This document shows, one piece after another, positions 6,055 to 64,000 of a stretch of 64,000 nucleotides of DNA. The position numbers and the translations under genes were made by a program. The notes below the pieces were generated by a model, which worked only from the letters and a program-made list of their open reading frames with translations, did no database searches and was not told where the DNA came from. The DNA is from Flectonema sp. DT1601. Lineage: Eukaryota. The DNA lies in contig OZ025788.1 of assembly GCA_964019425.1 (NCBI GenBank), positions 372,001 to 436,000 of the forward strand, given 5' to 3'. Numbering within the stretch: position 1 is the stretch's first letter; each line of letters begins with the position of its first letter.

Positions 6055-6220
6055 TAGTTGGTATCCCTCGTTCACTGATGGTAAAAGAAATAACCTTTGC
6101 TGAGGAGGGCTGGGTTAGGGGAATGGTCCGAAGAAAAACTTCTTAAGTTTATCCCATCAGTTGTTTGTTGTCCTGCGAATTTTTGATTTTAATAATTGAA
6201 ATGACTAATTAATATTAATA
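6055..6220 (+). repeat. Decayed copy of family 1 repeat
   Basis: GTATCCCTCGTTCACTGAT...GCTGAGGAGGGCTGGGTTAGGGGAATGGTCCGAAGAAAA...TTGTTGTCCTGCGAA matches 50220-50456. The AGCCCGAAAC strand is lost. Confidence 0.8.
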
Positions 6221-18360: not shown

Positions 18361-18540
18361 TTTTGAGTATCTACCTAACCGATACTCGGTGGTCTGAAGG
18401 ACTTGCTAACTATTATTACTAACTATTACGTAACCTTTTAGCCCGAAACCAACCATTATTTGTTTGTTGTCCTACGAATTTTTAGCATTTAATTTTTTTG
18501 ATTGACTGATGATTATTACTAACTATTAGGTAACCTAACA
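18361..18540 (+). repeat. 110-bp-satellite-related module followed directly by the 3' half of family 1 repeat
   Basis: TATCTACCTAACCGATACTCGGTGG...GACTTGCTAACTA resembles the satellite unit. AGCCCGAAACCAACCATTATT...GTCCTACGAA follows at 18440-18478. Confidence 0.75.
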
Positions 18541-42412: not shown

Positions 42413-42920
42413 TCTTTGTTTCTCTTATGTATTCTTGTTTCTCTCAATTTTTGTTTCGGTTGAGCTCGTCCTTGAGATAAACGATCGTCAAACTTTGGCA
42501 TCTTCTTATAATCTCAAAAGAAATGAAAAAAAAAAAACTAATCAGTACCGATTGAAAATAATGTCACTTATGTGCATATTTTTTTTTTTTTTTTTCATTC
42601 TCGGAATTTATCGATAATTATAAAGAAAGTCGTTGGATTAAATAATTAAAATACGAACAACCCATCGAGGTATATTATCGTTTGTTTTTTTCTTTTTCTT
42701 TTTCTTTCTTAGATTGATTAAGAACAAAAAACGTCACTGAAGTCATCATTGACTTTTGGTTTTCTCTTTTTTCCAACAACGCTCTTCATCTTTCCTGCTA
42801 TGTTAGTTCCCTTGAGGAGGTGTTTTTTTTCTCGAAGCATTGTAAAAAAAATACTTCGATCAATTTACTCTCGCTTACGCTAAAAAAGTGATCCTCTCGG
42901 GGATCAGGTTCGACATAAAG

Positions 42921-43013
42921 TCGTAGTATTGGGGACTCGCAGGTGGTTAACCGTTCCACCCTGTTGTGTCTATCTAACCAGTACTCGATGGTATGTCGGG
43001 CTCGCTAACTAAC
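42921..43013 (+). repeat. Solo copy of the 110-bp satellite unit
   Basis: GTAGTATTGGGGACTCGCAGGTGGTTAACCG...GGGCTCGCTAACTAACT is nearly identical to the unit at 53208-53908. Confidence 0.95.
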
Positions 43014-43304
43014 TAATTTAAAAAAAAACAGTTTTTTTAGATATCCTCTTCGTCTTTTTTTTAAAAAAAAAAACAAAAAAAATCGTATTTCTTTCCTTTT
43101 TCCAAACTGAACGAAGACAGCTAAGCTTGCCTTTGTCGAGTTATTCTTTATCGACCAGTTTATTTTAAAATCTGCTGCTATCTTTTTTAGTCGTTGTTGA
43201 CAGCATATAACATCTCCATGATGCTTCGAATCAAACTTCTTTGATGGGAAGTACAAAAATGTTTGAGATGACTCGTGGCTGTCTGTTACGTGTCCTCTAC
43301 TCAC

Positions 43305-44027: not shown

Positions 44028-44287
44028 TGACTAACTGTACTGACTAACTGTACTGACTAACTGTACTGACTAACTGTACTGACTAACTGTACTGACTAAC
44101 TGTACTGACTAACTGTACTGACTAACTGTACTGACTAACTGTACTGACTAACTGTACTGACTAACTGTACTGACTAACTGTACTGACTAACTGTACTGAC
44201 TAACTGTACTGACTAACTGTACTGACTAACTGTACTGACTAACTGTACTGACTAACTGTACTGACTAACTGTACTGACTAACTGTAC
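44028..44287. repeat. Perfect minisatellite (TGACTAACTGTAC)x20
   Basis: 13-bp period over 260 bp, read directly. Confidence 0.98.
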
Positions 44288-45054
44288 TTGATAACTTGAA
44301 GAACTTGTTGATAACTTGAATACGAGGTTTTGTGCCGTCAGGTACGTACTGTTGCTGTGGCGAAGGTTATCCTGGCAAGGCGGTGGAGTTACAATCCTGC
44401 ACCCAGAAGATTGATTTTCCGATCATAAACAACAAGCCCTCCTTTGATTCACACCACATTCGTTCGGTCAGGGTAGGTCTTTGGGCCAATTAAGCGTCTG
44501 ACCAACGTTCCAGAGTGTCTGCCCCATATATCCCCTCTATCTCTTCCGTCCGGCTTCATCCCTGGAAGTCATTTTTGCATACAACGATTGATGCATCTTC
44601 GTTAGGGCCACTACATTACCAACGAGGTGCTTCAGTGGGTGCTTGTACAGCTGTTGCCAATGTAAGGGCAGTTAGTGCCACTGTAACACCCACCTCCATA
44701 AGAGACCTTAAACGATGTGCGGGTGGTTTGAGGCAATGATGTTGACAGTACAAGCCAGGTGGTCAAGAGACATGTGGTGCAAGAACGTCCAAAATAATCT
44801 GAGAAAAACTCTTTGTGAACTTGTCACGCGTCCCAAAGGTGTCCCCCATCAGAAGCAGGCATGTTTGTTTAGAATAAAATTGTGAGGAATTTAAAATTAC
44901 TCAACATATTTTTCAGGGGAAAAAAAAGTCTGCCTTAAATTCGGCAAGTTCGATTCCAGGTGGCGGATTTTTTAACCACAGGCCGCAAGGCACTTTTTTT
45001 GTATAGAGGTGGCGGTTTCGGAAACTTTTGTCTGGATTAGAGGTTTTCCCAAAA

Positions 45055-48000
45055 AAAATTAAAATAAAATAAAACTCACCATGATGCAGCATTTCATTCT
45101 TACTTTTGCTGGCAAGATATAACTACAGGGTATGAGGGGCTCAACCTACGTTGTCGTCGAATTGTCAGATTCAATAAAGATCCGACTCAGTTGTGATTTT
45201 ATTAAAGTTTGTTTGAAGTTAAGTTATTTAATTGTCAGAGAAACGAAAAATGATGGTGCCAATAGTGTTAGCAAACGTGGTTCTTGCTTCAAAGTCACTC
45301 TGATGACATATTTTGCTTATAATTTCTTTTTCTTCAGACGCTGGGGCAAATGTTGGTATTCTTTCTGTTGTTGGCACTCCATTTCTCAATGACTGTCGGT
45401 TGGTCGGGTTCTACAAGTGCAGGATCTACGTCTACAATTGATATTAATGTCCGCAGTCTTTCGATGAGAGTCCGACAAGTGTACTTCAAATTCAGTCCAA
45501 GTTCTGGAGCCTGCGCTTTAATTTCAAAAAAAAGCAAATTCGATGTCCGACTTAGTTCCTGTGGAAAGTTGACTGACGTCCACTCGGGGAACATCGATTA
45601 TACTGCGGGAACACAGTTTGCAGTTGACGCTAGATTGCGATGTACTTCATCAAGCAAATGGTACCTCGAATTTCGAAATAACAATACCAACTGTAAAACA
45701 AATTGGGAAATCAGACTACCATCGTGGGAGTGCGATTCTGCCGGTCCGAATAAAGCTAACGAGTGTCTTCTTCGTTATAGAACAATTCCTCATAAACAAA
45801 ATGGTCCTGTTGTTGTAGGAACGGTAGTGAAATCAACTATCGAAGTCCTTGATGATCCGTATTCATCAAATAACCTATTAGTAGGATTGTCTTCATCACT
45901 TTTGTTTAATTCTATAACACCTTTTCCGATTGCAATAACGTCAAAAGGGACGACAACATTGGAGTCAACAATAACAACATCAAGTGTTGGGATGACAGAC
46001 TTTTGTGTTGATGTTAATGGACCTGCATTATCACAATATTATAATTTGGGTACTGGGTGTAAACCAATTGAAGTTTACGGACTGACTAATGCACCGCCTA
46101 CGTTAGTTCCAACACTCATTCCTACTGACTTACCAACTATTGTTCCAACTGATGTCCCTCCAACTGCTGTACCGACGAACATACCGACAGCTGTACCGAC
46201 TTTAGTTCCTACTACTATTCCTACCACTATTCCTACGCTGATTCCGACAAGTATTCCGACGACAATCCCAAGAACAGCTCAGCCAACTTTGATTCCAACA
46301 TCAGTACCACTAACTCAGATACCGATTACATCAAAACCAGCTGTGCCGGATTCATTGGGTACGGGCGATGCTGGAGGAGGTGTTAGTTTTACTGCATCTG
46401 TTGGTTCTCTTGTAGCAGGTTCTGGAGCTGGTGGAGCTCTATCAAAAACAATGGTTATTGCTAATCAAATAAAATGTACTGATGGTGTCCCCTCAGACGG
46501 CCTTCCTTTTATAGTTCACCCTCTGATCTTCGCAATAAAGGGAAACTACTGGGCTGGTGCTGTGATTGGAAATATTTCGTTGTGTCTATTCTCGTATATA
46601 TTTTTATATTTATTCGTTTTTATTATGAAGCGAAGGAATCCAGACAAAGACATTACCCTGACCATGAGGTATCCTGGAGTCTTGATTCCAGCCTCATTAA
46701 TTCTGTACCCATCAATCCTGCAGTATTCTGGTCTGCTGTTGATATATTCACACACTGCAGTTATGAAGATCGTGGGGGTATCAGGAATTTCATTTTGTAT
46801 AATTTTTATGGCTTTGGTGATGACGATATTCAGATGTAATCATAACAAATGTGCATATCGACAACGTTCGGAGGAGCATTACACTCCATTCGTTGCCTAT
46901 GCTCTTGGATGTGGTGCTTGGGAAGCTGTTGATGAGGATGACTACTATGTAGAAAGAATGGGAACCGGTTTTGATATTTATTGTTATATAAAACACTTAC
47001 GAGGTCACTATATTGTTATTGAATATGGTCCAGTCCCACTCCTGGTAGGAGCGGCATGGATATCAACGAACAATGTGTGGTATTGTACTGTACGGATTTC
47101 TGTTTTATTTTTTGCAACGTTTGTTCAATTGATCTACGTATGGAAGTTTAGAGTTTACATTGCCCCCTTACTAACTCATCTACACGTTTTAACAAATTCT
47201 TTAATTAGTTCTGCATTATTATTAGAACTTGTTTCTATTCATGCGTATGGTGAAAGTGATAATTGGGCTGATTCAATAAGTACCAACTTAATGACTGCTA
47301 GTGTCAGTTTGGTTCTTTTACGATGTGCTTACGACTGTCTTCAATACGTTGTTGATATTGTATCTGGTTATAAGAGACTAATTATTCAAGAATCACACAA
47401 TGATTCTCCTCAATTTGAAAAAGAAAATGTTAGCTGTACATCAGCAAGTGATATGATGATGCCTTTAATGCCTTTATCTAATCGGCATTCTTCCGAAGCA
47501 AGTAGCCAACCGAATCTTGCGTTTGTTAATATGGAATACAACCTACTACACTGTAAGTTTGGTGACAGTGATAACGAAGGTTGTGAAGTTATTCCTTTTC
47601 ATAACATCCAACCAGTTGATGACATGCTTAGTGGATTCATTAAAACGTCTCTGTAGAAAATATATCGGTCTTTCTTTTTTTTTTCCACTAATTTTTTTCA
47701 ATCGAGGCGGCATTATAGTGCGCTGCATCACTCGGTTCATTTCTGTCTAAAATTCTGGGAGGTTGGAGAACATCGAACAAAAAGCTATTACAGAGTACGA
47801 GCATGTGTAGGTGAAATATACTACGTTCATGATCAGATCATCATCGCAGTTAGTGTTAGTGAAGGAGCTCTCAGACTCGAAGGAAGTGCTATCCTGTTCT
47901 TCAGATAAAGGCAAAATTATCTCCCGCGGGGAGGTTCTCTAGGAGCTGCAACAGTTTTCTAACGCAATTGCTAGCATGAGAAGAACTGGGTCAAAGGCAC

Positions 48001-48393
48001 ACTTGGGAAGGAGGAAAAAAGAAAGTTGAAAAGGAATAAACTATAAAACTGGGGCTGTTTTTTACTCAGATTATCTCGATCGTTCCATTCCAGGTCCGGG
48101 ATTAATATTTATCATTGAGTAGGAAATCCTGCAAGGAGAGGTTAATATCCCTTTAGTGTCACTAAATATGTGTAAAAGTGCATATACAATCGAACCCTCC
48201 CCGATTCCAAAAAAAAAAAATCATGATGTGTTTACTCCAGGTGGTGCGTTTTTTGGTCGCAAAAATAATTTTGACTGATGTATATTTATTTTTTTTCTTC
48301 TGATCAAATTTATCAAAAAAAAAAAAATAAAAAATAAAAAAATATTCCACTCTTTTATTGATAAAATAAATAAGTAAATAAATCTGTATAAGT
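45055..48393 (+). repeat. Segmental duplication copy 1 (copy 2 at ~60610 to beyond 64000)
   Basis: Near-identical flanks and CDS between the two locations. Confidence 0.97.
45350..47656 (+). CDS. Surface protein: signal peptide, Cys-containing ectodomain, PT-rich mucin-like stalk and multi-pass membrane domain (copy 1)
   Basis: 768-aa ORF with a hydrophobic N-terminus, PTxV/PTxI repeats and about 7 hydrophobic helices. Confidence 0.92.
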   Translation: MLVFFLLLALHFSMTVGWSGSTSAGSTSTIDINVRSLSMRVRQVYFKFSPSSGACALISKKSKFDVRLSSCGKLTDVHSGNIDYTAGTQFAVDARLRCTSSSKWYLEFRNNNTNCKTNWEIRLPSWECDSAGPNKANECLLRYRTIPHKQNGPVVVGTVVKSTIEVLDDPYSSNNLLVGLSSSLLFNSITPFPIAITSKGTTTLESTITTSSVGMTDFCVDVNGPALSQYYNLGTGCKPIEVYGLTNAPPTLVPTLIPTDLPTIVPTDVPPTAVPTNIPTAVPTLVPTTIPTTIPTLIPTSIPTTIPRTAQPTLIPTSVPLTQIPITSKPAVPDSLGTGDAGGGVSFTASVGSLVAGSGAGGALSKTMVIANQIKCTDGVPSDGLPFIVHPLIFAIKGNYWAGAVIGNISLCLFSYIFLYLFVFIMKRRNPDKDITLTMRYPGVLIPASLILYPSILQYSGLLLIYSHTAVMKIVGVSGISFCIIFMALVMTIFRCNHNKCAYRQRSEEHYTPFVAYALGCGAWEAVDEDDYYVERMGTGFDIYCYIKHLRGHYIVIEYGPVPLLVGAAWISTNNVWYCTVRISVLFFATFVQLIYVWKFRVYIAPLLTHLHVLTNSLISSALLLELVSIHAYGESDNWADSISTNLMTASVSLVLLRCAYDCLQYVVDIVSGYKRLIIQESHNDSPQFEKENVSCTSASDMMMPLMPLSNRHSSEASSQPNLAFVNMEYNLLHCKFGDSDNEGCEVIPFHNIQPVDDMLSGFIKTSL

Positions 48394-48731
48394 TCCTTTT
48401 AATAAGATTTTTATTTTATATTTTATCTCTCTCTCTCTACGCTTGCGGTGAAAAGCATATTGTAGTCTGCTCCAGTGGTGGCCTGAGATCAAGGGAGGCA
48501 CACTGGCTTACATTCGACGCAGTCTCTGCAATCCCTGATCCTGGCTTGCGTGTTGTCTAGACTTGGCTGAATTCAAAGTTGACTACAAGCCAAAGACATG
48601 GTTCTGGATATATCTTAATTAGTACCCTCTATGGTGTGGTGTATCATCTGTGCATGTCACTGGAGCCCTAGTCGATGCGGACACATTTTTTTATACAGGG
48701 GTTCGTCATAGAGGCAAGAGAGTAGAGCTAC

Positions 48732-48895
48732 GTTGCCTGTGGGGCAGCAGCGTGCACCGAAGCCAAGGATGCAGGATGGACTCCTCGACCATATCGTAAA
48801 ATAAATTAATTAAAATTAAATTTAAACGACGGTTTTAGATGCAAAAGCAGATACGGATTTTCACTTGTGGGTCTTTTCTTTGCCTCTCGCTTCGC
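48732..48895 (+). repeat. Short duplicated segment (other copy 51067-51230)
   Basis: GTTGCCTGTGGGGCAGC...CTCCTCGACC and AAACGACGGTTTTAGATGC...GTGGGTCT occur at both sites. Confidence 0.9.
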
Positions 48896-49172
48896 TCGTG
48901 AGGTAAACACACTCGAGTGGGTAAAAACCCTGAAATTCAGGCTATCTGATCTTCGTCTAGTAGTTATTAGTTTTTTCGAACGAAAAAAACTTGTGAACAA
49001 AAAAAAAAAAAAAAAATCATGTCAGGTATTCTTCGGGTTGCGTTCCATTTTTTATTCTTCTTTTTTCCCTTGTCATCTATTTTTCCCAACTGCATAAAAA
49101 GGATATTAACAAGGCATTGTGATTTAACTATCACTCATTATCTGTTTGAGAATATTTTTGGTAGTCAGTTGC

Positions 49173-49240
49173 GGAATGAGGTACCCAGAACTCACTGATG
49201 AAATCAAGGAGATAATTTAGAAAAAAATATGGAACAGCAG
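49173..49240 (+). repeat. Heavily deleted family 2 copy
   Basis: GGAATGAGGTACCCAGAACTCACTGATGAA followed by ATGGAACAGCAG, matching the head and tail of the 53985/56154 copies. Confidence 0.65.
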
Positions 49241-49416
49241 CATTATTTTCTTTTATTTTTGTTGCACCCGACACAAGTCAGTTAGCAGAGCTATTCGAAT
49301 AAACGATGCGTCTTTCTTGTCGAATGCTTTCGCAGAAGGTCGTCTTCCCACGATCTAAGAATTTCACCTCTGACGTCGACCAGTGTTGCTGTCATGTGAT
49401 CAACAGATCATAATAA

Positions 49417-49960
49417 GTTAGACTGCAATCAAATTCCCTCTCCTTTTATTTCATGAGAGTGAGATCCCCAGGGAGTTAGGAAAAAAAAAGAAGGGATCTC
49501 ATTAATTATTGTTATTCGTTAGTTCGTTCGTTTTTTTTCTTCTTTTTTTTTTTCCCCGCACTGAAAATATCTAATTAGAGTTGTTACGTAAACGATGCGG
49601 ATTCAGAGGATGAGAAGATTTTTTAGTGTGTATGTGTGTGTTTTTTTTGCGCAAAAATAATCTCATTCATGAGCAGGTGTTCGACCGATTTTTTTCTTTT
49701 GGTTTAAGTCTTCCGACTTTTTTAACTCAAGAAATCAACGAATTCGGAAAAACTGCAGGCTCCTTCGCTAATTGTTTCGTAGCTTCTTATTAGGTAGCAT
49801 TTCTTCTTGTGCATCTTCCTCTCCTTATTTTTCTGCCGAACGTTTTTAGCTTTGTTTTCCTCCTCCTTTTTGTACAAGACCTCAGAGGAAGTATCAAATT
49901 ACCTTTCCAAGGGGCTATATTGGCGAAATTAGTTCTTGTCATGCGTGCTTTTTGAATTGA
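49417..49960 (+). repeat. ~540-bp non-coding duplication (other copy 51296-51852)
   Basis: Near-identical from GTTAGACTGCAATCAAATTCC to GTCATGCGTGCTTTTTGAATT. Confidence 0.95.
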
Positions 49961-50216
49961 ATAATTTTGACTGTTATGTTTTTTTTTCTCTTTTTCTGAT
50001 TAAATTTTATCAAAAAAAGAAAAAAAAAACAAACTTTTCTGATCAAATTGCAACTGTCCTACGAAAATTTTGCTTGCCGAAAGAAATGTCTTCGTACGTC
50101 TGGCGGTGCCATGAGACTCGGACACATCTATAGAATACCGTCTGAGCATGAGTGGAAACCTTTTTATTTTTTTATCATTCATTCTCCATAAACATAACTC
50201 AGCCCCACTAATTTTG

Positions 50217-50523
50217 TTAGTATCCCGCGTTCACTGATATTTACATATGGGGACTGTGTTAAATAGTAAAGGAAATAACCATGTTGACGTGGTCCCTTGG
50301 CTGAGAACGGAAAACGCGATGAGTAGGACAGGCCTGACACCGCAGTGTCCCCCCTTGCTTTCTTCGCTGAAGAGGGCTGGGTAAGGGGAATGGTCCGAAG
50401 AAAGATTTTTTAATTTTAGCCCGAAACCAACCATTATTGGTTTGTTGTCCTACGAACTTTTGCATTCGATTGAATTTTCCCGCCCTCTCCCCTTCTTTTG
50501 ACTGATAATTATTAATACTAACT
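50217..50523 (+). mobile_element. Family 1 dispersed structured repeat (retrozyme-like, ~300 bp), best-preserved copy A
   Basis: Near-identical to 57933-58207, with decayed copies at 4.0, 5.3, 6.1 and 18.4 kb. It is non-coding and contains a hammerhead core. Confidence 0.75.
50323..50453 (+). ncRNA. Non-circularly permuted hammerhead ribozyme, family 1
   Basis: CUGAAGA 50367-73, GUC 50393-95 and GAAA 50423-26. Stems I (8 bp), II (7 bp) and III (4 bp) all pair flush against the core. Confidence 0.8.
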
Positions 50524-50647
50524 TTTCTGATCAAATTTTATCAAAAAAAAAAAAAACAATATTCCTCTCTTTTATTGATGATCTGTATAAGTTCCTCTTA
50601 ATAAAATTTTTATTTTATATCTGCTTGATTGCGTTGAGACCAGGGAA

Positions 50648-50947
50648 TTGGTAAAGCAAACCATGAGATTTCCGACACCAGATGATGAGCTCTCTCTGGA
50701 TATGTTCTTTCGAACTGAATGGCAGCCTTTCACGTTGTTATTGATCAGCAAGCTTGATAATCATCTTAAAGAGTTATCTGACAATCCGTTGTTGTTGAAG
50801 TTTCAGGGTATTTTTATGAGGAGGAAACTAATCGCGCACATCGAAAGGAAAATAAGTTTCTCGTTACTGGGTTCTGATGTGAAGGAGCATGTTATAGAAC
50901 TTATTGATAATTCATATAAAGTTATCGATTTGACGAACTTTCTATAG
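50648..50947 (+). other. Short ORF of uncertain status (possible gene fragment)
   Basis: 99-codon ORF with protein-like composition and no recognisable motif. Confidence 0.25.
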
Positions 50948-52260
50948 CAGATGCGCTTATCAATCCTGACTGGTCGGAGCCCAAGCTTTCTAAGTTTCTT
51001 TCTCGGTTAAGTCGCCTCCTGTGACGAAATCCCCTAGGTAGATAAAGAACGTCTCTTTCCTCTAGTGTTGCCTGTGGGGCAGCAGCGTGCACCGAAGCCA
51101 AGGATGCAGGATGGACTCCTCGACCGGGTGTACATTTTCCCTTCGGAGCCTCCTATCGTAAAATAAAACGACGGTTTTAGATGCAAAAGCAGATACGGAT
51201 TTTCACTTGTGGGTCTATTCTTTACCTCACGAGCGAAGCTGGCAACCGTGGGTTGGCCGAACCTTTTTTAGTTTAACAGTTTTAAATTACTTTTTGTTAG
51301 ACTGCAATCAAATTCCCTCTCTTTTTATTTCATGAGAGTGAGATCCCCAGGGAGTTAGGAAAAAAAAGAAGAAAAAAAAAAAAAAAAGAAGGGATCTCAT
51401 TTATTATTGTTATTTGTTGGTTCGTTCGTTTTTTTTTTTTTTCCCCCGCACTGAAAATATCTAATTAGAGTTGTTACGTAAACGAAGCGGATTCAGAGGA
51501 TGAGAAGATTTTTTAGTGTGTATGTGTGTGTGTTTTTTTGCGCAAAAATAATCTCATTCATGAGCAGGTGTTCGACCGATTTTTTTCTTTTTTCTTTTGG
51601 TTTAAGTCTTCTGACTTTTTTGACTCAAGAAATCAACGAATTCGGAAAAACTGCAGGCTCCTTCGCTAATTGTTTCGTAGCTTCTTATTAGCATTTCTTC
51701 TTGTGCATCTTCCTCTCCTTATTTTTCTGCGGAACGTTTTTAGTTTTGTTTTCCTCCTCCTTTTTGTACAAGACCTCAGAGGAAGTATCAAATTACCTTT
51801 CCAAGGGGCTATAATGGCGAAATTAGTTCTTGTCATGCGTGCTTTTTGAATTTTTTGATCCGAGAGGAAACAAAAAAAAAAAAAAGTGAGCTTCAAGCTT
51901 CAATAGTAGGATATTTTTTATAAATAAAATAAACTTCTAGGAGGAGTTCTCTGATAAACTCTGTGAAGATATATTTTTTTATTCTTTTTTTTTGCAACCT
52001 CTCTATAACAAGAAGGAAAGAGTTCTTATCTTCACACTGATCAGTGATCATCCTACTGGATCCACGAATGACCCCACAGGAAACTATATTAACTAATACA
52101 ACTGTTGCAGTAACAACAAACGGCAATGGTGGTAAATGATGGGAAAAACGACCTCCACGAGCAGTTCTTAAAAGTGAACTTGAGAAGGTCGATATGGTAG
52201 GGTGTTTTTATGACTAAAAGTAAACTTCTAAAAGGAGTTCTATGATAAACTTTGTGAGAT

Positions 52261-52368: not shown

Positions 52369-53207
52369 TAAAATGGTGCAGCAAGGCAATTACTGGGCAA
52401 AGTTAGAACTGGTGGACGCAACTTTTGGCATCCAAACTGATTCTTGGCTTTTTATTTTAATTCGATGGACAAAAAAAAGAAGACGCGTCCGGAATTGAGC
52501 CTGGTCTGGAGCACGGTACCGTACCGTTCGACCATCCCTGCTCTGAAACACATCCCAACCACTGGGGATCTCGATGCGTTCCGTGTAAAGTTTGGGGGGC
52601 CCCTCTAACCATTTTGAATTTTGTAATAACGCCCCATTTTGGAACTATTTATGTAGCAAAGGTTAGTTTGTCCATATTTCTTTTTTTGCAACCTTTGTAA
52701 GAATAAAAAGAAAAAAAAACGTTGCTGTGATTTTTATCTTGAGCGGATTCGCAATGACTCACAATGTCCTTTCTTTTTGTTTTTTCTTGTTCTTTTTCCT
52801 CCCTTATTTTTAACGACGTTTATTATAAATAACGTTTTTCTTTATTTTTTGTATAAACTTTATATTGTGACTCACATCACCCTGGTTGCGAAATGCATTG
52901 ATATTCCGGATGAGCGCAATTTCCTGCCATCCGTTCATCACTGCTTTTTCTGATGCCAATCTCAATGCGTGTCATAATATACACAAGCGAACTTTGAGTG
53001 TCATCTTTTTTAATTTTCTTAAAGAGATGTCTCAGAGATTCCTGTGAGATACATACATAGAGAATATGAATTCATTATTGTTACGTGAATCATAATATTA
53101 TAGAAGATTTTTGTACCAATTAATAAATAAATATTCGGATTGAATTCCAACTGAAAAATAAAAGTTTGCGGGTTTGCGGTGTGTCATATTACGAAGTATT
53201 GAGAATT

Positions 53208-53908
53208 CACAGGTGGTTAACCGTTCCACCCTGTCGTGTCTATCTAACCAGTACTCGATGGTATGTCGGGCTCGCTAACTAACTCAGGGATTACATAATG
53301 TTGTAGTATTGGGGACTCACAGGTGGTTAACCGTTCCACCCTATCGTGTCTATCTAACCAGTACTCGATGGTATGTCGGGCTCGCTAACTAACTCAGGGA
53401 TTACATAATGTTGTAGTATTGGGGACTCACAGGTGGTTAACCGTTCCACCCTATCGTGTCTATCTAACCAGTACTCGATGGTATGTCGGGCTCGCTAACT
53501 AACTCAGGGATTACATAATGTTGTAGTATTGGGGACTCACAGGTGGTTAACCGTTCCACCCTATCGTGTCTATCTAACCAGTACTCGATGGTATGTCGGG
53601 CTCGCTAACTAACTCAGGGATTACATAATGTTGTAGTATTGGGGACTCACAGGTGGTTAACCGTTCCACCCTATCGTGTCTATCTAACCAGTACTCGATG
53701 GTATGTCGGGCTCGCTAACTAACTCAGGGATTACATAATGTTGTAGTATTGGGGACTCACAGGTGGTTAACCGTTCCACCCTATCGTGTCTATCTAACCA
53801 GTACTCGATGGTATGTCGGGCTCGCTAACTAACTCAGGGATTACATAATGTTGTAGTATTGGGGACTCACAGGTGGTTAACCGTTCCACCCTGTCGTGTC
53901 TATCTAAC
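53208..53908. repeat. 110-bp tandem satellite, ~6.4 copies
   Basis: AGGTGGTTAA recurs at 53211, 53321, 53431, 53541, 53651, 53761 and 53871. Units are almost identical and have no variable spacers. Confidence 0.98.
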
Positions 53909-53983
53909 GAATAGCTCCGATGGACATTAAGAAATCAGTTCTTTTGAAATGGACCAATTGATAAATCCGATTTATTAATAAAC

Positions 53984-54067
53984 TGGAATGAAGTCCCTTA
54001 GAACTTACTGATGAATGCCTAAGAGGGACAAGTAGTATAAGATTAAGGCTCCTGAAACTACATATTC
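53984..54067 (+). ncRNA. Non-circularly permuted hammerhead ribozyme, family 2 (core intact)
   Basis: CUGAUGA 54008-14, GUA 54035-37 and GAAA 54054-57. Stem I is CUUA/UAAG, stem III is ACUAC/GUAGU, and stem II is bulged. Confidence 0.72.
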
Positions 54068-54681
54068 TATCACCCTTTGATGTTAGGAAACTGCAGAAAT
54101 GAATACTTTTCTTTTACTGATCTCTACTTCTTATTAAATAAAATAATAAATAAAAAATATTCTCGCTTTTCTATACCAAATTTAATGATACTAACTAACA
54201 TTCTATTTTCATAATTACGTCTCTACTACTTGTTCCTTTGTTGGTTCTAGTTACGGTGAGAGTAGCGTACAAGTGAAGATATTGCTAATGTAGTTTAGTA
54301 ATCTTTCGCCCAATGTTATTAGTTAGTTCTTTTTCTGCTAGTAGTACATATTCTTATTGGTACAGTTTCCAATGGAAAACAATCCCGAATGTAGCGACCG
54401 GTATTCTTAACTCTGTCAACAGAAAACATGAATTAATAAATTCTGACCTTCTTGGTTTGATTTCTTTTGTGTTTCGGTCATAGTTACTGGTGTCGTCTGC
54501 GATTCCTCTTCGAACACTTCTACGGGGTACAGCGTCTGCACCATTTCCGTCAGGAACACCCGCCGTTGACGTCGCACGTGACGCTTATTAGCAGCATATA
54601 TTGTTGCAGAACTTGATGGAGAACTGTTTTTTTTTTGGAACAAAAATAATGGAAGTATAATCTCACTTCTTTTTACAGTAA

Positions 54682-55752
54682 ATGAGAAATGTTTGGCTGT
54701 TGGCTGTCTCAGTTGCTATAGTAGTGTTGCTGAATGGAGTGTCGAATGTGAGTTGGGGTTTGGAAGACATTACACAGCATGTGTTTCCAAGCATCGATCT
54801 AAACATTACACAGAATGAGTTGGCAAGTACCGATCAACCAGTACCAGAATCAGCAGCATTGGATGATGGAAGTTGCCGTAACATTGACAGTTTGATGCCT
54901 GGTTCTTTTGAGAACGGAAGTTGGGTTTCTGAAAACTGCGAATTCAGACCACTGAATATTTCAGAAGTTCAAAAGTGCCTTGAAAATAAAATAGTTCTCG
55001 TAGTTGGTGATTCTCAACTAAGATCCTTGACCACGAGTGCTGCTACAGCTTTTGGATTGTCTCGCATGAAAAAAGGACATCATGATAAACCTATTAAGTT
55101 AGTAGCGCCGGGGAGTAAAAAATCACCACTACAGTTCTTCTGGAAGCCGTCCGTTAACTTTCGAGGGTTTAAGAATTATTATCCTCCCAGAAAGAATCAA
55201 CTGGCAGCGACAGATCATTTAATATTTAATGACGCAATGTCAGATATTGGTCGTTATGGCTGTGGGGTTCAAGTCTTCTATACTCGTTTATTAAAACAGA
55301 TGAGGCTGTACAAGGCAGCGATCCCATCCGAGGCTGTATTTTCACTATTTGTTCTTCACTGGATTTGGTTAGATCCAACAATTTGTAGTGAGCTTTGTCG
55401 CAAATGTAACAGCCCTGCTAAACTTGCTGCCTTCAGAGAAGCAACACTGTTAGCAGCATCATGTAGTGGAATAAGTCTCATTGATACTTCGAAAGTAACT
55501 CGATCAATGGGAATGAAGCATTCTTATGATGGTGTCCATCTTAGTGGTAGTGCTCTTCGTTTACAACTCGACATTGTGGCTCATAACATCTGCCGCCCAC
55601 GTGATGTTCCTTTCACTTCTTCAAATCCGATTCGCTGTTCAGACGAAGCAGTAATTCGTAAAAAGTGGGAAACTATCCCAGAGGCAGAAACAAGCTGTGC
55701 GACCATTCCAATAGATTGCTCACCTGAAGGGGGTGAATTTGGGGGGATTTGA
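54682..55752 (+). CDS. SGNH/PC-esterase-like (TBL/Cas1p-type) acyl-esterase or O-acetyltransferase with an N-terminal anchor
   Basis: VLVVGDSQLR and YDGVHL catalytic motifs, the W..C......CL pre-domain and an N-terminal hydrophobic segment. Confidence 0.88.
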   Translation: MRNVWLLAVSVAIVVLLNGVSNVSWGLEDITQHVFPSIDLNITQNELASTDQPVPESAALDDGSCRNIDSLMPGSFENGSWVSENCEFRPLNISEVQKCLENKIVLVVGDSQLRSLTTSAATAFGLSRMKKGHHDKPIKLVAPGSKKSPLQFFWKPSVNFRGFKNYYPPRKNQLAATDHLIFNDAMSDIGRYGCGVQVFYTRLLKQMRLYKAAIPSEAVFSLFVLHWIWLDPTICSELCRKCNSPAKLAAFREATLLAASCSGISLIDTSKVTRSMGMKHSYDGVHLSGSALRLQLDIVAHNICRPRDVPFTSSNPIRCSDEAVIRKKWETIPEAETSCATIPIDCSPEGGEFGGI

Positions 55753-56150
55753 GAGGACGTAATTCAACCAAGTGGTTAGTGAATTAAGAATCTTATTGAC
55801 TTTATGTCACTTTTCATAAGTCATCTAACTAATTGATAACTCGTGTGCTATGATGTATTATGACCTTGGTAACTTTCTTTTTTTTTGTGTGTGATTTGCT
55901 ACCGACGCGTTTGGCACGATGCTTCTTATTAGATATTCTTTTTTAATAAATTATTTATGATTTTCTAGATTATAATATCGTCAAAAAAAGAAAAAAAAAA
56001 AAATAAAAAAAAAAATAAAAAAATAAAAAGGAAAACCTAGTTAGTTAGCCAATCAAAAGTAAATATATGTTAGCCAGTTCTGACGAGTTTCGATGGACAT
56101 TAAATCAGTTCTTTTGAAATTGACATTGGTTAATCTGATTTATCAAAAAA

Positions 56151-56263
56151 ACTGGAGTGAAGTCCCAGGAACTTACTGATGAAGGCCTACGAGGGACAAG
56201 TAGTATAAGATTAAGGCTCCTGGAACTATGTATTCCGGTGTTTTATGGAACAGCAGAACAATT
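56151..56263 (+). ncRNA. Family 2 permuted hammerhead copy with GGAA instead of GAAA (probably inactive)
   Basis: CUGAUGA 56176-82 and the same helices as 53984-54067. Outer stem is ACUGGAGUG/UAUUCCGGU. Confidence 0.65.
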
Positions 56264-57895
56264 GTATTTTTATTCTCACTAATAGCTGGAAAGTGGGGAC
56301 CACAACCGTACTCTTTGGAGGTTTATCGGATCCCTGTTCATATTGCAATGAGTAGCATTGTTAATTGGATGGATGGAAAAGGTTACCAACTTAGAGTTGT
56401 GAAAATGTGTTAAGGATATGTAATCCTACGCCAGTCAAACGTCGTTTTATTTTATTAATTTTTCATCATTATCATCTTCTGGGATCAGTCTGCTTGCATC
56501 CCTTCTCCGTAGCAAACAAACTGGATCCTTCTCTGAACTCCTTTATCTCCTTATTCTCCTCATGAAATAAACACTTGAGGCAGAGTCTTCGGACCAATGC
56601 GGTCACTGCCGCTCTGGACAGCCCGTCGTTTCCCTAACGATGGTAGGAATGTGCTTCGTACGCTTAAGAGTGCGTGACTATTTCATGCTCTTCTGACGTC
56701 CTTAACCATGTTTCTCGTATTCCTTGTCAGGCTTCAACCAAAAGTGAAAAAAGAAAGGCAAACATTGAAGTGAAAACAACAATGAACAAAGAAGGCGGTT
56801 GCACCCATGAGTGCAACCAGAAAAAACAAAAAAAAATAAAAAAGAACCAAAAATTTCGAATCTCTGGTTTTTCTGGTATGACCTGAATTATGACCACTGT
56901 TTTGGTGGAATTAGAGATTTTCCTAAAAGAGAAAAAAAACTCTTTCAATCATTTACAAGGCGCTTCAGGAACAACTATAATCTTCAACCTTTAGAAATCA
57001 ATATTTTGTTTTAGCAGTGTGCTCCGAGCTACGAACTAACAAATACAAGCTTCGTTTTTTAAAAGAAATACGATAACCGACGACAAAAAAAAAAAAAACA
57101 GAAATTTAAATCAGTAGTGACGAACTGCAAGGCGTAAAGCTCTCAACTTGTAGAACGTAACCATCAGATTCGACAGTGATTTCTGGATACTTGTACTAAC
57201 ATTATTTTAGTTATGTACGAGTGTAATACATTGTCTGACTTTTCAGCGACTATCCTACAATGAAGCTTAATCTTCCTTTTTTTTCCAGTATAACCTTATT
57301 ACTCATGTAGTATTAAAAGGTTTATTACTGTTTCTACATTGTCAAACTATCACCCACGCTCAACCTGCCCCCCAAATTACCACAATTGACAACGTCTTCT
57401 GTTCAATAAGACGGAAAAAAAAAAAAAAAAAAAAAAAAAAACCCTTTTCTTTTTTCTAAACGTAATTATTTTTTGATTAACAGCTACGAATATTTTTTTT
57501 TAGTCAAGTACTTGATATTAATTTTGTTTTTAGTACCTAAAGCTGTTACTGTTTTTTACATTGTCAAAGTCTCATCCCCCAGATTCTTTCGTATTCGTAT
57601 TAAATCCCAGATGCAGCAGGGCATGGGATGCTCAACCTGTAGTGCGTGGTCCCCGGGTCAATTTGACTTGACAGCATTTCTTTCTGTGGTAGTTTATTTG
57701 AAGCATGCGATCTGGACAGAATCCAGTAATGATAATTCATGTCCAATCTGTTGCGTGTTAACCTTAATTTATTCATCCAAGTCCCCTAGGGGGATTTTGA
57801 TACGATACGAAAAGATCCTTGTAGATCCTTGCGTATCGTATTAAGTCCCCCCCTTCTTGCGTATGTTTCGTTCACAATATCTGATTTAACCCGAC

Positions 57896-58209
57896 AACTA
57901 ACTAACTAATACTAACTCTGGTCACTACCAAGGGGGACTGTGTTAAATGGTAAAATAAATAACCATGTTGACGTGGTCCCTTGGCTGAGAAGGGAAAACG
58001 CGATGAGTAGGACAGGCCTGACACCGCAGTGTCTCCCTTGCTTTCTTCGCTGAAGAGGGCTGGGTAAGGGGAATGGTCCGAAGAAAGATTTTTTAATTTT
58101 AGCCCGAAACCAACCATTATTGGTTTGTTGTCCTACGAACTTTTGCATTCGATTGAATTTTCCCACCCTCTCCCCTTCTTTTGACTGATAACCATTAATA
58201 GTAACTAAC
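57896..58209 (+). mobile_element. Family 1 dispersed structured repeat, copy B, flanked by TAAC-rich tracts
   Basis: Near-identical to 50249-50523. AACTAACTAACTAATACTAACT lies upstream and GTAACTAAC downstream. Confidence 0.75.
58007..58136 (+). ncRNA. Non-circularly permuted hammerhead ribozyme, family 1 copy B
   Basis: CUGAAGA 58050-56, GUC 58076-78 and AGCCC-GAAAC 58101-10, with a 9-bp stem I CUUUCUUCG/CGAAGAAAG. Confidence 0.8.
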
Positions 58210-60898
58210 AATCGACTTAACTTACTGATTGTTTTAACGGCTTCTTCTATGTTGAGTTCTATGCTGCTTTTCCTATACAGCCCAGGGGACAGTTATATAT
58301 CAAAAGAGACAAATAGGGAGGCTCCACTTCGGAGACTGAGAGTCGTGACTGTACAGGTATAAGTACACTTTATCCCACTCCCCTTCAATAGTAGTTGGTT
58401 ATAGGTTTTCAGTGGCCATCGCGGCGATAGGATGGATCCAAATCAGAGCGAACCAATTTTGGATGGTCTCCGGGCAGATGGGTGAGCTCGTCCTTCCCAG
58501 GTTGAGTAGTCTAGGATGTACCGACGTAGTCGGAGAAGAAACTTTTCAGATTGCTAATCAGAATGGTTTTTTTTATTTATGTGCAAAGACCTGCCGTATT
58601 CAGATCCTTTCGTCTCGTATTAAATTTCTCCGTTCTTCAACCCGTACTAACATTTCCTTTGGTCGTATCAACTGACGTTTATTTACTTAACTCTCTAGAT
58701 ATTTATTTATTCTTCTTCCATTAAATATATGCCAGCATCTCAATCCCTCATTCTTCATTGAATGTGGTGCCTCGGAATCCCAGGCCCGTAGGCCCTTTGA
58801 TTTAAGAGCTAAAATGTAAGGTCTTACAAGATCAATGCAGAACAACTTACTTATCACTCGCAGCCAAATCTTGCGAAATGTGCTGTGTTAGGAACCAGAA
58901 ATTTCATTTTCATTGTGTATTTTAATTGTTTTTGCGGAAATAATTTTCCTTTAATATCAACTTGAAGTTAAGCTGTAAAGGGCTACAGGGCATAGGGCGC
59001 TCAACCTGTATGCTGTACCGTGGCCCACTGGTTTGGCAGAACACTATATTCGTTTTATCCAGTTTCAACTTGCTTTATATTTTATTATTGTATCAAGTTA
59101 CTCCACATAAACTGTCGATCATATCGTAGTCTGCATGGACTAAACTAAGCATCAGAGTTCAATTTCAAATAATTAAAGAAACAACATAAAAAAAAAAGAA
59201 GAAATAGTGCTACTCTGGAGCTGAAACTTCTTTTGTGATTACTGCAACCTGCGTTTTTATTCTAAGATTGTTCAGCAACGTGAAGAATTTGATCTCACAA
59301 AACCTTTTTTTTTGACTAACATAAAAAAAGAATCAGCAATCTCACTAAATAATTCAGTGGTTTTGGTTTCCCAGGACTCACAACTATTTAATTAATTGAA
59401 TAACTCGATTCCGTACTGCACTGAATGTGCAGCTAAGTTAGAAACATTTAATTTTATGTAAACCTCTCGTACTAACATTACCTTTAATCACTGTATTATA
59501 ACTAATGTTTGTTTTAATTAACTTTGGTACAATACAGATATTTATTTGTTCGTAACATTTCGACCCACAAAATTACTATCCAAAAGACCCAAACCCGGTA
59601 CTGGGGAACCCCTAACTGCCCACCGGTTTCAAAGTTCCCATTTTTTAAGAATGTTGGCAGCACACGTAAACCTCCTTTAACTTTATCAGTTTAAGTCGGT
59701 TCACGGTTTTGTGCACAAACAAAACATCGCAGGGTTATATTACTGTTTTCTGTATAGTTTAAGATAAAGCCAATTCTTTTTTACTTTACCTTTTAAGCTG
59801 TGTACAACTGTGGTAACAATTATGTTTGTAAGTTTTATTTTTTTATGAAGGTCCGGATTTCCTGTGACTTATGCGAATGTCAGACTTTGCCAAAGTGTCG
59901 GTCACAGTCGGACTTGCTGTGAGAAAAGGTCAACCGAGCTGATTAACTTATTCTTCAGAAGGGCACTGATTACAAGTTGTGTTCTCAAATTGCCTGCCGG
60001 CATCAGCCAAAAGTGAATCTTCTTGTCCTTCTCATGCACCGGTAGAACTTCTTCACAACTAGATACGTCACTACAGCGTCCTGGTTGATGTGTGAGGAGG
60101 AAGCCGATATGGCTTCGTTGAGCCTCAGTTCCAAGGTGCTTAAGTAGTTGACATCCAAGTAGACTGTATCCCTCTTGTTGATAAAAGAGAGAATTTGACC
60201 CTTCTAACATCAGTAGAAGCTTCCTCTCTTTGTAATCCAGAGTCATAATTATATAGTCACTAGGATTGGATGTATGTTCTCGATACACCTGACACTGCTC
60301 TTGCCTTCTCCATGTGAATGTATCTCGGTGATTACTTTGATATGCTTCTCAGCTTCAGGCTTTACGCATGTTGGAAAGCTGTCCGCTGGTGTAGAAGGCT
60401 CCAGAGACCCCAGCTTTCCAGATGGAAACATGTGAAGACTTAGGCGGGCAAGCTTATTTCAGAGATTCTTTCCGACGAGACGGTAGTTACACACATCTGT
60501 ACGATGTTGTAGCTGCTGAAACTCTACTCCACGTAGTGAATCGGTTTTTTTTTTTAAACGTTTTTCAAAAAAAAAAATGACTGATATAACAATAATAAAA
60601 AAAAAAAAAAAATTAAAATAAAACTCACCATGATGCAGCATTTCATTCTTACTTTTGCTGGCAAGATATAACTACAGGGTATGAGGGGCTCAACCTACGT
60701 TGTCGTCGAATTGTCAGATTCAATAAAGATCCGACTCAGTTGTGATTTTATTAAAGTTTGTTTGAAGTTAAGTTATTTAATTGTCAGAGAAACGAAAAAT
60801 GATGGTGCCAATAGTGTTAGCAAACGTGGTTCTTGCTTCAAAGTCACTCTGATGACATATTTTGCTTATAATTTCTTTTTCTTCAGACGCTGGGGCAA

Positions 60899-63253
60899 AT
60901 GTTGGTATTCTTTCTGTTGTTGGCACTCCATTTCTCAATGACTGTCGGTTGGTCGGGTTCTACAAGTGCAGGATCTACGTCTAAAATTGATATTAATGTC
61001 CGCAGTCTTTCGATGAGAGTCCGACAAGTGTACTTCAAATTCAGTCCAAGTTCTGGAGCCTGCGCTTTAATTTCAAAAAAAAGCAAATTCTCTGTCCGAC
61101 TTAGTTCCTGTGGAAAGTCCGCTAATGTTCACTCAGGGAACATCGATTATACTGCGGGAACACAGTTTGCAGTTGACGCTAGATTGCGATGTACTTCATC
61201 AAGCGAATGGTACCTCGAATTTCGAAATGACAATACCAACTGTAAAACAAATTGGGAAATCAGACTACCATCGTGGGAGTGCGATTCTGCCGGTCCGAAT
61301 AAAGCTAACGAGTGTCTTCTTCGTTATAGAACAATTCCTCATAAACAAAATGGTCCTGTTGTTGTAGGAACGGTAGTGAAATCAACTATCGAAGTCCTTG
61401 ATGATCCGTATTCATCAAATAACCTATTAGTAGGATTGTCTTCATCACTTTTGTTTAATTCTATAACACCTTTTCCGATTGCAATAACGTCAAAAGGGAC
61501 GACAGCATTGGAGTCAACAATAACAACATCAAGTGTTGGGATGACAGACTTTTGTGTTGATGTTAATGGACCTGCATTATCACAATATTATAATTTGGGT
61601 ACTGGGTGTAAACCAATTGAAGTCTACGGACTGACTAATGCACCGCCTACGTTAGTTCCAACACTCATTCCTACTGACTTACCAACTATTGTTCCAACTG
61701 ATGTCCCTCCAACTGCTGTACCGACGAACATACCGACAGCTGTTCCGACGAACATACCGACAGCTGTACCGACGAACATACCGACAGCTGTACCGACTTT
61801 AGTTCCTACTACTATTCCTACCACTATTCCTACGCTGATTCCGACAAGTATTCCGACGACAATCCCAAGAACAGCTCAGCCAACTTTGATTCCAACATCA
61901 GTACCACTAACTCAGATACCGATTACATCAAAACCAGCTGTGCCGGATTCATTGGGTACGGGCGATGCTGGAGGAGGTGTTAGTTTTACTGCATCTGTTG
62001 GTTCTCTTGTAGCAGGTTCTGGAGCTGGTGGAGCTCTATCAAAAACAATGGTTATTGCTAATCAAATAAAGTGTACTGATGGTGTCCCCTCAGACGGCCT
62101 TCCTTTTATAGTTCATCCTCTGATCTTCGCAATAAAGGGAAACTACTGGGCTGGTGCTGTGATTGGAAATATTTCGTTGTGTCTATTCTCGTATATATTT
62201 TTATATTTATTCGTTTTTATTATGAAGCGAAGGAATCCAGACAAAGACATTACCCTGACCATGAGGTATCCTGGAGTCTTGATTCCGGCCTCATTAATTC
62301 TGTACCCATCAATCCTGCAGTATTCTGGTCTGCTGTTGATATATTCACACACTGCAGTTATGAAGATCGTGGGGGTATCAGGAATTTCATTTTGTATAAT
62401 TTTTATGGCTTTGGTGATGACGATATTCAGATGTAATCATAACAAATGTGCATATCGACAACGTTCGGAGGAGCATTACGCTCCATTCGTTGCCTATGCT
62501 CTTGGATGTGGTGCTTGGGAAGCTGTTGATGAGGATGACTACTATGTAGAAAGAATGGGAACCGGTTTCGATATTTATTGTTATATAAAACACTTACGAG
62601 GTCACTATATTGTTATTGAATATGGTCCAGTCCCACTCCTGGTAGGAGCGGCATGGATATCAACGAACAATGTGTGGTATTGTACTGTACGGATTTCTGT
62701 TTTATTTTTTGCAACGTTTGTTCAATTGATCTACGTATGGAAGTTTAGAGTTTACATTGCCCCCTTACTAACTCATCTACACGTTTTAACAAATTCTTTA
62801 ATTAGTTCTGCATTATTATTAGAACTTGTTTCTATTCATGCGTATGGTGAAAGTGATAATTGGGCTGATTCAATAAGTACCAACTTAATGACTGCTAGTG
62901 TCAGTTTGGTTCTTTTACGATGTGCTTACGACTGTCTTCAATACGTTGTTGATATTGTATCTGGTTATAAGAGACTAATTATTCAAGAATCACACAATGA
63001 TTCTCCTCAATTTGAAAAAGAAAATGTTAGCTGTACATCAGCAAGTGATATGATGATGCCTTTAATGCCTTTATCTAATCGGCATTCTTCCGAAGCAAGT
63101 AGCCAACCGAATCTTGCGTTTGTTAATATGGAATACAACCTACTACACTGTAAGTTTGGTGACAGTGATAACGAAGGTTGTGAAGTTATTCCTTTTCATA
63201 ACATCCAACCAGTTGATGACATGCCTGGTGGATTCATTAAAGCGTCCCTGTAG
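60899..63253 (+). CDS. PT-rich multi-pass surface protein (copy 2)
   Basis: 784-aa paralogue of 45350-47656 with two extra PTNIPTAV units. Confidence 0.92.
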   Translation: MLVFFLLLALHFSMTVGWSGSTSAGSTSKIDINVRSLSMRVRQVYFKFSPSSGACALISKKSKFSVRLSSCGKSANVHSGNIDYTAGTQFAVDARLRCTSSSEWYLEFRNDNTNCKTNWEIRLPSWECDSAGPNKANECLLRYRTIPHKQNGPVVVGTVVKSTIEVLDDPYSSNNLLVGLSSSLLFNSITPFPIAITSKGTTALESTITTSSVGMTDFCVDVNGPALSQYYNLGTGCKPIEVYGLTNAPPTLVPTLIPTDLPTIVPTDVPPTAVPTNIPTAVPTNIPTAVPTNIPTAVPTLVPTTIPTTIPTLIPTSIPTTIPRTAQPTLIPTSVPLTQIPITSKPAVPDSLGTGDAGGGVSFTASVGSLVAGSGAGGALSKTMVIANQIKCTDGVPSDGLPFIVHPLIFAIKGNYWAGAVIGNISLCLFSYIFLYLFVFIMKRRNPDKDITLTMRYPGVLIPASLILYPSILQYSGLLLIYSHTAVMKIVGVSGISFCIIFMALVMTIFRCNHNKCAYRQRSEEHYAPFVAYALGCGAWEAVDEDDYYVERMGTGFDIYCYIKHLRGHYIVIEYGPVPLLVGAAWISTNNVWYCTVRISVLFFATFVQLIYVWKFRVYIAPLLTHLHVLTNSLISSALLLELVSIHAYGESDNWADSISTNLMTASVSLVLLRCAYDCLQYVVDIVSGYKRLIIQESHNDSPQFEKENVSCTSASDMMMPLMPLSNRHSSEASSQPNLAFVNMEYNLLHCKFGDSDNEGCEVIPFHNIQPVDDMPGGFIKASL

Positions 63254-64000
63254 AAAATGTATCGGTCTACTTTTTTTTTTGCGACTAAATTTCCACTAAT
63301 TTTTTTCAATCGAGGCGGCATTATAATGTGCCGCATCACTCGGTTCATTTCTGTCTAAAATTCTGGGAGGTTGGAGAACATCGAACAAAAAGCTATTACA
63401 GAGTACGAGCATGTGTAGGTGAAATATACTACGTTCATGATCAGATCATCATCGCAGTTAGTGTTAGTGAAGGAGCTCTCAGACTCGAAGGAAGTGCTAT
63501 CCTGTTCTTCAGATAAAGGCAAAATTATCTCCCGCGGGGAGGTTCTCTAGGAGCTGCAACAGTTTTCTAACGCAATTGCTAGCATGAGAAGAACTGGGTC
63601 AAAGGCACACTTGGGAAGGAGGAAAAAAGAAAGTTGAAAAGGAATAAACTATAAAACTGGGGCTGTTTTTTACTCAGATTATCTCGATCGTTCCATTCCA
63701 GGTCCGGGATTAATATTTATCATTGAGTAGGAAATCCTGCAAGGAGAGGTTAATATCCCTTTAGTGTCACTAAATATGTGTAAATTGCATCCCTATGCTT
63801 ATTTTGAACAACCGAACCCTCCCCGATTCCAAAAAAGAAATCATGATGTGTTTACTCCAGGTGGTGCGTTTTTTTGGTCACAAAAATAATTTTGACTGAT
63901 GTATATTTATTTTTTTTCTTCTGATCAAATTTTATCAAAAAAAAATAAAAAAATATTCCCCTCTTTTATTGATAAAATAAATAAATAAATCTGTATAAGT

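Follow-up and report, generated by a model that had tools for sequence, protein, structure and literature searches.

A hammerhead motif of type CSG in a short, probably retroposed repeat of Flectonema sp. DT1601

A stretch of 64,000 nucleotides from Flectonema sp. DT1601 (contig OZ025788.1, positions 372,001 to 436,000 of the forward strand; hereafter the window, to which all coordinates refer) contains at 50323-50453 a motif that, by its anatomy, is almost certainly a hammerhead ribozyme of type CSG. This ribozyme is very probably carried by a retroposon, and the explanation that we prefer, with somewhat better than even confidence, is a CSG hammerhead within a short, non-coding and non-autonomous retroposon that probably derives from the 3′ end of a Penelope-like element. 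Since the block order was already named type CSG in 2023, the fold is not new, but its setting is.

Eckert et al. (2023; PMC10085705) named six block orders of hammerheads, including type CSG, for which soil metagenome DNA had yielded five sequences, two of them unique. The two cut at the predicted site, with rates of 0.004 (CSG-1) and 0.026 per min (CSG-2). The paper reports no type CSG in genomes of known organisms and rates the evidence for biological relevance weaker for CSG than for type SGC, which comprises 583 essentially metatranscriptomic sequences and for which the necessity of all four helices was shown by compensatory mutation. In our literature searches, which subscription papers mostly escaped, type CSG and hammerhead were found together in Eckert et al. 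(2023) only. No report of CSG in eukaryotic genomes was found, within a literature of which subscription papers were mostly, and bioRxiv supplements possibly, beyond reach. As far as these searches reach, the element carrying the motif is undescribed.

Results

Anatomy of the motif

Three blocks follow each other on the + strand in the order C, S, G. Block C (50359-50380) contains a stem I strand, the CUGAAGA core (50367-50373) and a stem II strand, block S (50391-50403) a stem III strand, the GUC triplet (50393-50395) and a stem I strand, and block G (50416-50429) a stem II strand, the GAAA core (50423-50426) and a stem III strand. Stem I (50359-50366/50396-50403) is formed by eight Watson-Crick pairs, stem II (50374-50380/50416-50422) by five Watson-Crick and two G·U pairs, including G10.1-C11.1, and stem III (50391-50394/50426-50429) by four pairs, including A15.1-U16.1. 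The stems of 8, 7 and 4 bp directly adjoin the core, as a hammerhead requires, and the core elements CUGANGA, GAAA and an NUH triplet with the A15.1-U16.1 and G10.1-C11.1 pairs are all present. A further helix of 8 bp with one G·U pair (50351-50358/50381-50388) braces stems I and II at the position known from CSG-1 and CSG-2, and an outer helix of 9 bp with a terminal G·U pair (50323-50331/50445-50453) encloses the whole. A possible ninth stem I pair, C50358-G50404, competes with the brace.

An earlier note on this DNA, made from the letters alone, had proposed a rearranged hammerhead at this site, and base by base we recovered all of its segments and pairings, among them the enclosing helix and the extra 8-bp helix, for which CSG-1 and CSG-2 have an equivalent. 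The order that it gave, CUGANGA, NUH, GAAA, equals that of the published and experimentally tested type CSG (PMC10085705). It was also accurate in calling rearranged hammerheads rarely reported and in expecting standard models to miss the motif, for which Rfam returned no hammerhead match. The note stood with respect to structure, but it had recognised neither the retroposed repeat, with its target-site duplications, in which the motif is set nor a hairpin that competes for the GAAA block. Hammerhead types I-III are ruled out by the order C-S-G, which is not the circularly permuted C-G-S order of a nested three-way junction, and by the lack of an Rfam match.

With CSG-1 and CSG-2 (PMC10085705), the motif shares the C-S-G order, an intact core, the GUC triplet, occurrence in DNA and an 8-bp helix that pairs a strand 5′ of stem I with a strand 3′ of stem II. 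It differs from them by other helix sequences, an A at N7, longer stems I and II, an added outer helix and an S-to-G linker of 12 nt, compared with about 5 nt. The two RNAMotif descriptors for CSG that we examined call for CUGAUGA and allow no more than 8 nt between S and G, so that the present family would escape both. Type SGC (HRIMA-1 and variants) has, in the same source, an equal cyclic block order and the same four helices, but its ends open elsewhere, and it is nearly all metatranscriptomic and found beside hairpin ribozymes. By analogy with the published CSG forms, the cut is predicted after C50395 (50395/50396), and the motif at 50367 is quite likely to cleave in vitro.

Chance expectation and database searches

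A hammerhead descriptor allowing any order of the three blocks was applied to both strands of the 64-kb window and returned two strong matches, one at 50367 and one in an almost identical copy at 58050. Both have the C-S-G order, and their stems I-III add up to 21 bp. Block-wise dinucleotide shuffling of the window, repeated 100 times, produced C-S-G matches of 14 bp at best; when all orders were allowed and the fourth helix was not demanded, the shuffles gave three matches at 19-21 bp, one of them at 21. A core-plus-stem pattern matched twice in the window and 0.00 times on average in 100 shuffles. On the opposite strand of the window, the order-free descriptor detected no ribozyme. In the whole window, Rfam gave no match at gathering scores. 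Up to E=10, it listed no hammerhead in 49900-50700; there, as in 52900-58400, all that occurred were sub-threshold chance matches.

Other sequence collections yielded little. The pattern of the element described below (family 1) had no match among JGI metagenome contigs, and a pattern combining family 1 with CSG-1/2 had none among prokaryote genomes and two among the JGI contigs, which lie in GC-rich coding DNA, lack the helices and were rejected as products of chance. Two looser patterns matched 10 and 26 loci in viral contigs, and the order-free descriptor was applied to all 38 metagenome and viral pattern loci. At locus L005:305 (+), a viral contig carries a hammerhead of the ordinary type I whose stem III is long. 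A weak and widely spaced C-S-G match of 4+4+3 bp at locus L007 was rejected.

A search of sequencing runs found one marine RNA run, X1, that shares part of the stretch (0.07 of words). A 389-nt contig from this run aligns to 50130-50523, from which it departs by 20 substitutions and 36 gap letters; it is known as a contig alone and is not evidence of transcription or habitat. It ends at the 3′ end of the element and continues beyond the 5′ edge of the query. All 28 listed differences lie outside both the 65 core and helix positions and the outer helix, with three of the 20 substitutions not placed. If uniform placement is assumed, the probability of this constraint is 0.005 for 29 events, one of them from other contigs, and about 0.006 for 28. 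In a second X1 contig, with a depth of 3, C50427G breaks stem III. The 389-nt contig had no joint closing a circle. Within family 1, the helices show conservation and one change of C-G to U·G, but no compensatory base change; the same topology with other helix sequences occurs in a second family in the window, in CSG-1/2 and, judged by eye from the available Naiad sequences, in Naiads.

The carrier element and its copies

The motif is situated near the 3′ end of a non-coding insertion of 470 bp (family 1; 50050-50519, +), and 128 nt of the element follow the predicted cut. The insertion is flanked by an exact 18-bp direct repeat (50032-50049 and 50520-50537), which we infer to be a target-site duplication. 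In a random control of 2000 pairs of intergenic 30-nt zones, taken 470 apart, the shared sequence never exceeded 15 nt, compared with 18 here; the target of this insertion is itself a locally repeated AT-rich unit. The 3′ terminal segment (50464-50523) ends at a TACTAACT-like motif common to five copies. Frames of at least 60 aa in the element matched no Pfam family above cut-off. A tRNA-derived SINE head found no support, as ARAGORN found no genes and no tRNA family matched up to E=10.

Altogether, the window contains six copies or fragments of family 1, all on the + strand and four of them decayed or truncated. The second intact copy (57933-58206, core at 58050) is 96% identical and 5′-truncated, and one C-G pair of its brace is changed to U·G. 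A 5′-truncated fragment at 18437-18511 starts with block G and is flanked by 25-bp direct repeats with one mismatch (18412-18436 and 18512-18536). The copy at 5977-6226 is decayed, with internal deletions and loss of block G, that at 4032-4137 is a decayed 5′-truncated fragment whose flanking repeat has decayed too (74% over 19 nt), and that at 5327-5415 is a decayed internal fragment, reaching from the outer helix strand to block C, without the common 3′ end. In the remaining five, the 3′ ends are in register (at about 50523), and the 5′ ends correspond to positions near 50050, 50133, 50249, 50400-50408 and 50414. Flanking repeats are clear at two of five copies examined, decayed at one and weak or absent at two; no clear flanking repeat was found at the copies 58050 and 6100, both of which are long. 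The common 3′ end, the variable 5′ ends and the flanking repeats together fit the pattern of target-primed retroposition.

Close to the 5′ end of the element, a 19-nt remnant of its own post-ribozyme sequence (50055-50073, matching 50446-50463 at a spacing of 391) may represent a partial tandem; it is a single match, and 30 of 3000 random 60-mers scored equally well (p ~0.01). The 3′ segment has about 40 nt in the older copies and 60 in the intact ones.

The copies adjoin repeats ending in CTAAC, which suggests a common targeting of ACTAAC sites. A 110-bp tandem repeat (53195-53908, +) consists of 6.5 copies that are 99% alike, has single copies at 42914-43015, 17468-17534 and 18362-18412, and its dispersed relatives end in CTAAC repeats as well. 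A perfect 13-bp tandem repeat of 20 copies (44028-44288) contains ACTAAC. The idea that TACTAAC serves as a trans-splicing branch point found no support, as the motif was not enriched in the 120 nt before the 19 long ORFs.

Competing folds

A 7-bp hairpin at 50424-50443 (+; -5.7 kcal/mol) would sequester part of the GAAA core and of the stem III strand. It is present in both intact copies, has -0.4 and 0 kcal/mol in copies 18436 and 4040, and is disrupted in the X1 contig by deletions at 50432 and 50436. Nested folding prefers such alternatives, with the hairpin over block G and the brace extended into the core; the stacking sums of the active and the alternative fold are about equal (-48.6 and -48.0). 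The brace is also part of the nested minimum-energy fold. As 345 nt that precede the cut site are still included in the copy at 50050, the template of this copy must have been uncut at that site. Cleavage is probably slow or conditional. The hammerhead of a Penelope element from a lizard needed a protein to cleave and was dispensable for insertion in vitro, where uncut RNA was the main substrate (PMC11167929).

A second family and the genomic setting

A sequence-unrelated C-S-G hammerhead (family 2) is present on the + strand at 53918-54115 and 56091-56284, with cores at 54008 and 56176, and in decayed form at 4941-5065, 49172-49259 and 4149-4191. It has a stem I of 4 bp, a stem III of 5 bp, a brace of 5-7 bp and a GUA triplet, and it is imperfect, with a mismatch at the second stem II pair in 54008 and GGAA for GAAA in 56176. 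The two better copies flank the ORF 54682-55752, and all five family-2 matches are on the + strand, as are all ORFs of more than 200 aa in the window. Copies of both families lie in repeat-rich patches at 1.3-4.3 kb from the next long ORF and have no fixed place; the stretch of core genes at 21000-42000 contains none.

The best relatives of a phosphatase encoded at 26453 are EukProt transcriptome proteins, of which the highest-ranking one with a label bears the prefix Rhum, followed further down by Sspe and Hpha proteins, trypanosomatids and Diplonema papillatum. These prefixes, which presumably denote Rhynchopus humris, Sulcionema specki and Hemistasia phaeocysticola, serve as species codes in a table of diplonemid gene families. 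We conclude that the host is a diplonemid nuclear genome. The region 43000-64000 is a patchwork of local duplications; a 3.4-kb duplication (45051-48393 and 60600-64000, 96%) carries a gene for a membrane-type protein with PT repeats. A decayed gene on the - strand (59847-60539) matches unnamed proteins of 606 and 678 aa (P0146 and P0147), without a Pfam family above cut-off; its motifs presumably recall a DDE transposase of the Sola/Zator type.

Neighbouring and related retroelements

The sole retroelement ORF found nearby belongs to a 5′-truncated remnant of an ingi-like LINE with APE, RT and RNase H (50621-51260, +), of which a second 3′ piece is located at 48722-48902. ORF 50621-51042 corresponds to the 3′-terminal part of a longer APE-RT-RNase H ORF, which has 1349 aa in full and belongs to a 90% cluster of 25 members. 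The ribozyme was rejected as the 5′ end of this LINE, which starts about 100 nt past the 3′ flanking repeat and is missing at the other copies. The 3′ region of the LINE (51043-51260 and 48722-48902) has nothing in common with the 3′ end of family 1, and by this 3′-end test family 1 was also rejected as a SINE of the local LINE. Those intergenic frames of the window that were tested contained no remnant of an RT or a GIY-YIG domain and no protein of Penelope type.

SLACS and LINE ORFs are present in D. papillatum. The word Penelope had no match in seven supplements of the D. papillatum paper, whose Additional file 1 may contain repeat sections outside the searched text. In kinetoplastids, elements of the CRE and INGI clades make target-site duplications, and the known INGI ribozymes are HDV-like and situated at the 5′ end (PMC12278014). 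INGI/L1Tc, RIME, NARTc and SIDER resemble family 1 as euglenozoan retroposons with a ribozyme and target-site duplications, but are unlike it in their 5′ HDV-like Pr77 and poly(A) end, as described there.

Naiads are Penelope-like elements for which Craig et al. (2021; PMC8557442) state the lack of canonical hammerheads, flag eight families as having half cores with the second half 35-50 nt off, and describe 5′ truncation, partial tandems and a tail of 30-40 bp. We read by eye the 3′ regions of 17 of the 54 families in File S5 of that paper, picked partly by its flags. The C-S-G fold with stems I-III and brace was found by eye in seven of these (Parc, Nbra-1, Nbra-2, Nbra-3, Hcon, Hpol and Smim, the last from a spider), the helix sequences varying while pairing was kept. 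In the Naiad section of the file, five of the 12 matches to CTGANGAG represented, again by eye, complete C-S-G hammerheads with brace. The other ten viewed 3′ regions had no clean C-S-G fold: the order resembled S-G-C and stem II was split in Ovul and three Acropora Naiads (Amil, Aacu and Anas), and no clean fold was seen in Asuum, Dst-1, Dst-2, Dst-3, Esco and Tama, as far as their last ~600 nt show. No paper linking Naiads to C-S-G hammerheads was found in literature that mostly excluded subscription papers, and PMC13159263 contains no such link.

Discussion

The likeness between family 1 and the seven Naiad families, judged by eye, is the presence of a C-S-G hammerhead with a brace in the 3′ region, which Craig et al. 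do not report. No sequence kinship was seen; Naiads are autonomous animal elements of 3.4-4.4 kb with GIY-YIG and RT, whereas family 1 is non-coding, has 470 bp and resides in a protist. The hammerhead of family 1 lies in the 3′ terminal region, and copies are truncated at the 5′ end, as described for Naiads. The 19-nt remnant at a spacing of 391 and the ~40-nt segment of the older copies recall the partial tandem and the 30-40-bp tail of Penelope elements, the former by one short match. We regard a Penelope-like retroposition partner as slightly favoured. Non-LTR retrozymes are likewise short, non-coding retroelements with hammerheads and were proposed to be derivatives of Penelope pseudo-LTRs (bioRxiv 10.64898/2026.07.22.740005; see also PMC7229834), but they are arranged in tandem, each unit having its own type I hammerhead, whereas family 1 is dispersed and truncated and carries type CSG. 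Identity with non-LTR retrozymes was rejected, as no tandem array holds the motif and its order is C-S-G.

According to the explanation that we prefer, family-1 copies would be transcribed within unidirectional gene-cluster transcripts of the host. The brace would form first, after which stems I, II and III could close as pseudoknots around an ordinary hammerhead core. A cut after C50395 may release the RNA of the element from a longer precursor or, alternatively, reduce the transcript of a partial tandem to single units of about 391 nt. At ACTAAC(T)-like targets, reverse transcription would then be primed by an enzyme whose gene lies in another part of the genome, and it may often halt early and so leave 5′-truncated copies.

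The same ribozyme and retroposon might instead be a SINE-like passenger of a conventional non-LTR element, either ingi-like with APE-RT-RNase H or of the CRE/SLACS type, without Penelope ancestry. The ingi-like LINE in the window (50621-51042, from the 25-member cluster) and the SLACS and LINE ORFs of D. papillatum would supply such a partner, and flanking repeats of 18-25 bp suit elements of this kind, as CRE and INGI make target-site duplications (PMC12278014). We nevertheless consider this origin rather unlikely, because the 3′ region of the LINE is unrelated to that of family 1, no LINE ORF accompanies the other five copies, and the ribozyme lies near the 3′ end, as in the Naiads viewed, while the INGI ribozymes described are HDV-like and 5′. 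More improbable still is that the copies descend from a working CSG hammerhead but are trapped in misfolded states, barely cleave and persist as neutral relics of recent retroposition. The competing hairpin, the extended brace and the stem III of 4 bp would be expected for such relics, as would insertions that include sequence upstream of the cut and the decay or truncation of four of the six copies, and the lizard Penelope hammerhead depends on protein and is unneeded for insertion in vitro (PMC11167929). On the other hand, core and all four helices are intact in two copies and the X1 contig, in which the hairpin is disrupted, and CSG-1 and CSG-2 do cleave (PMC10085705).

The orientation of the copies raises the question whether the host has co-opted the ribozyme to cut intergenic polycistronic pre-mRNA and thereby to help set the 3′ ends or the decay of neighbouring mRNAs. 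Long ORFs, the six family-1 and the five family-2 matches all share the + strand, a family-2 pair flanks ORF 54682-55752, and diplonemids are thought to process polycistrons (PMC10161547). Such a role is very improbable given the lack of a fixed place for the copies, which lie in patches of repeats at a distance of 1.3-4.3 kb from the next long ORF, the decay of most of them, their absence from the core-gene stretch 21000-42000 and the flanking repeats that mark copies as insertions. An origin as genomic copy of a viroid-like circular RNA is barely conceivable: C-S-G and S-G-C are one cyclic order and type SGC occurs in RNA-only elements (583 sequences; PMC10085705), and the 391-nt spacing resembles the size of the contig from an RNA library, but there is no ribozyme on the opposite strand, X1 lacks a circle-closing joint, and dispersed, 5′-truncated copies with flanking repeats fit retroposition.

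We consider the chances evenly balanced that type CSG is the missing ribozyme of Naiad-type Penelope-like retroelements and that diplonemids harbour at least two families of short retroposons carrying it, placed in sense within polycistronic transcripts that they would cut. They would be natural hammerheads with non-circularly permuted blocks in a euglenozoan nuclear genome, a setting that we did not find described for this form in the literature searched. The repeated family, the second family and the seven Naiad examples would provide the CSG fold with a host, a job and support from covariation. If true, the published conclusion that Naiads spread free of hammerheads would change, and the role of ribozymes in Penelope transposition would become testable in a new clade. 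An entire class of ribozymes in eukaryotic repeats would then go unnoticed by standard searches. In a lineage believed to process polycistrons, intergenic ribozymes on the sense strand could additionally affect host transcripts.
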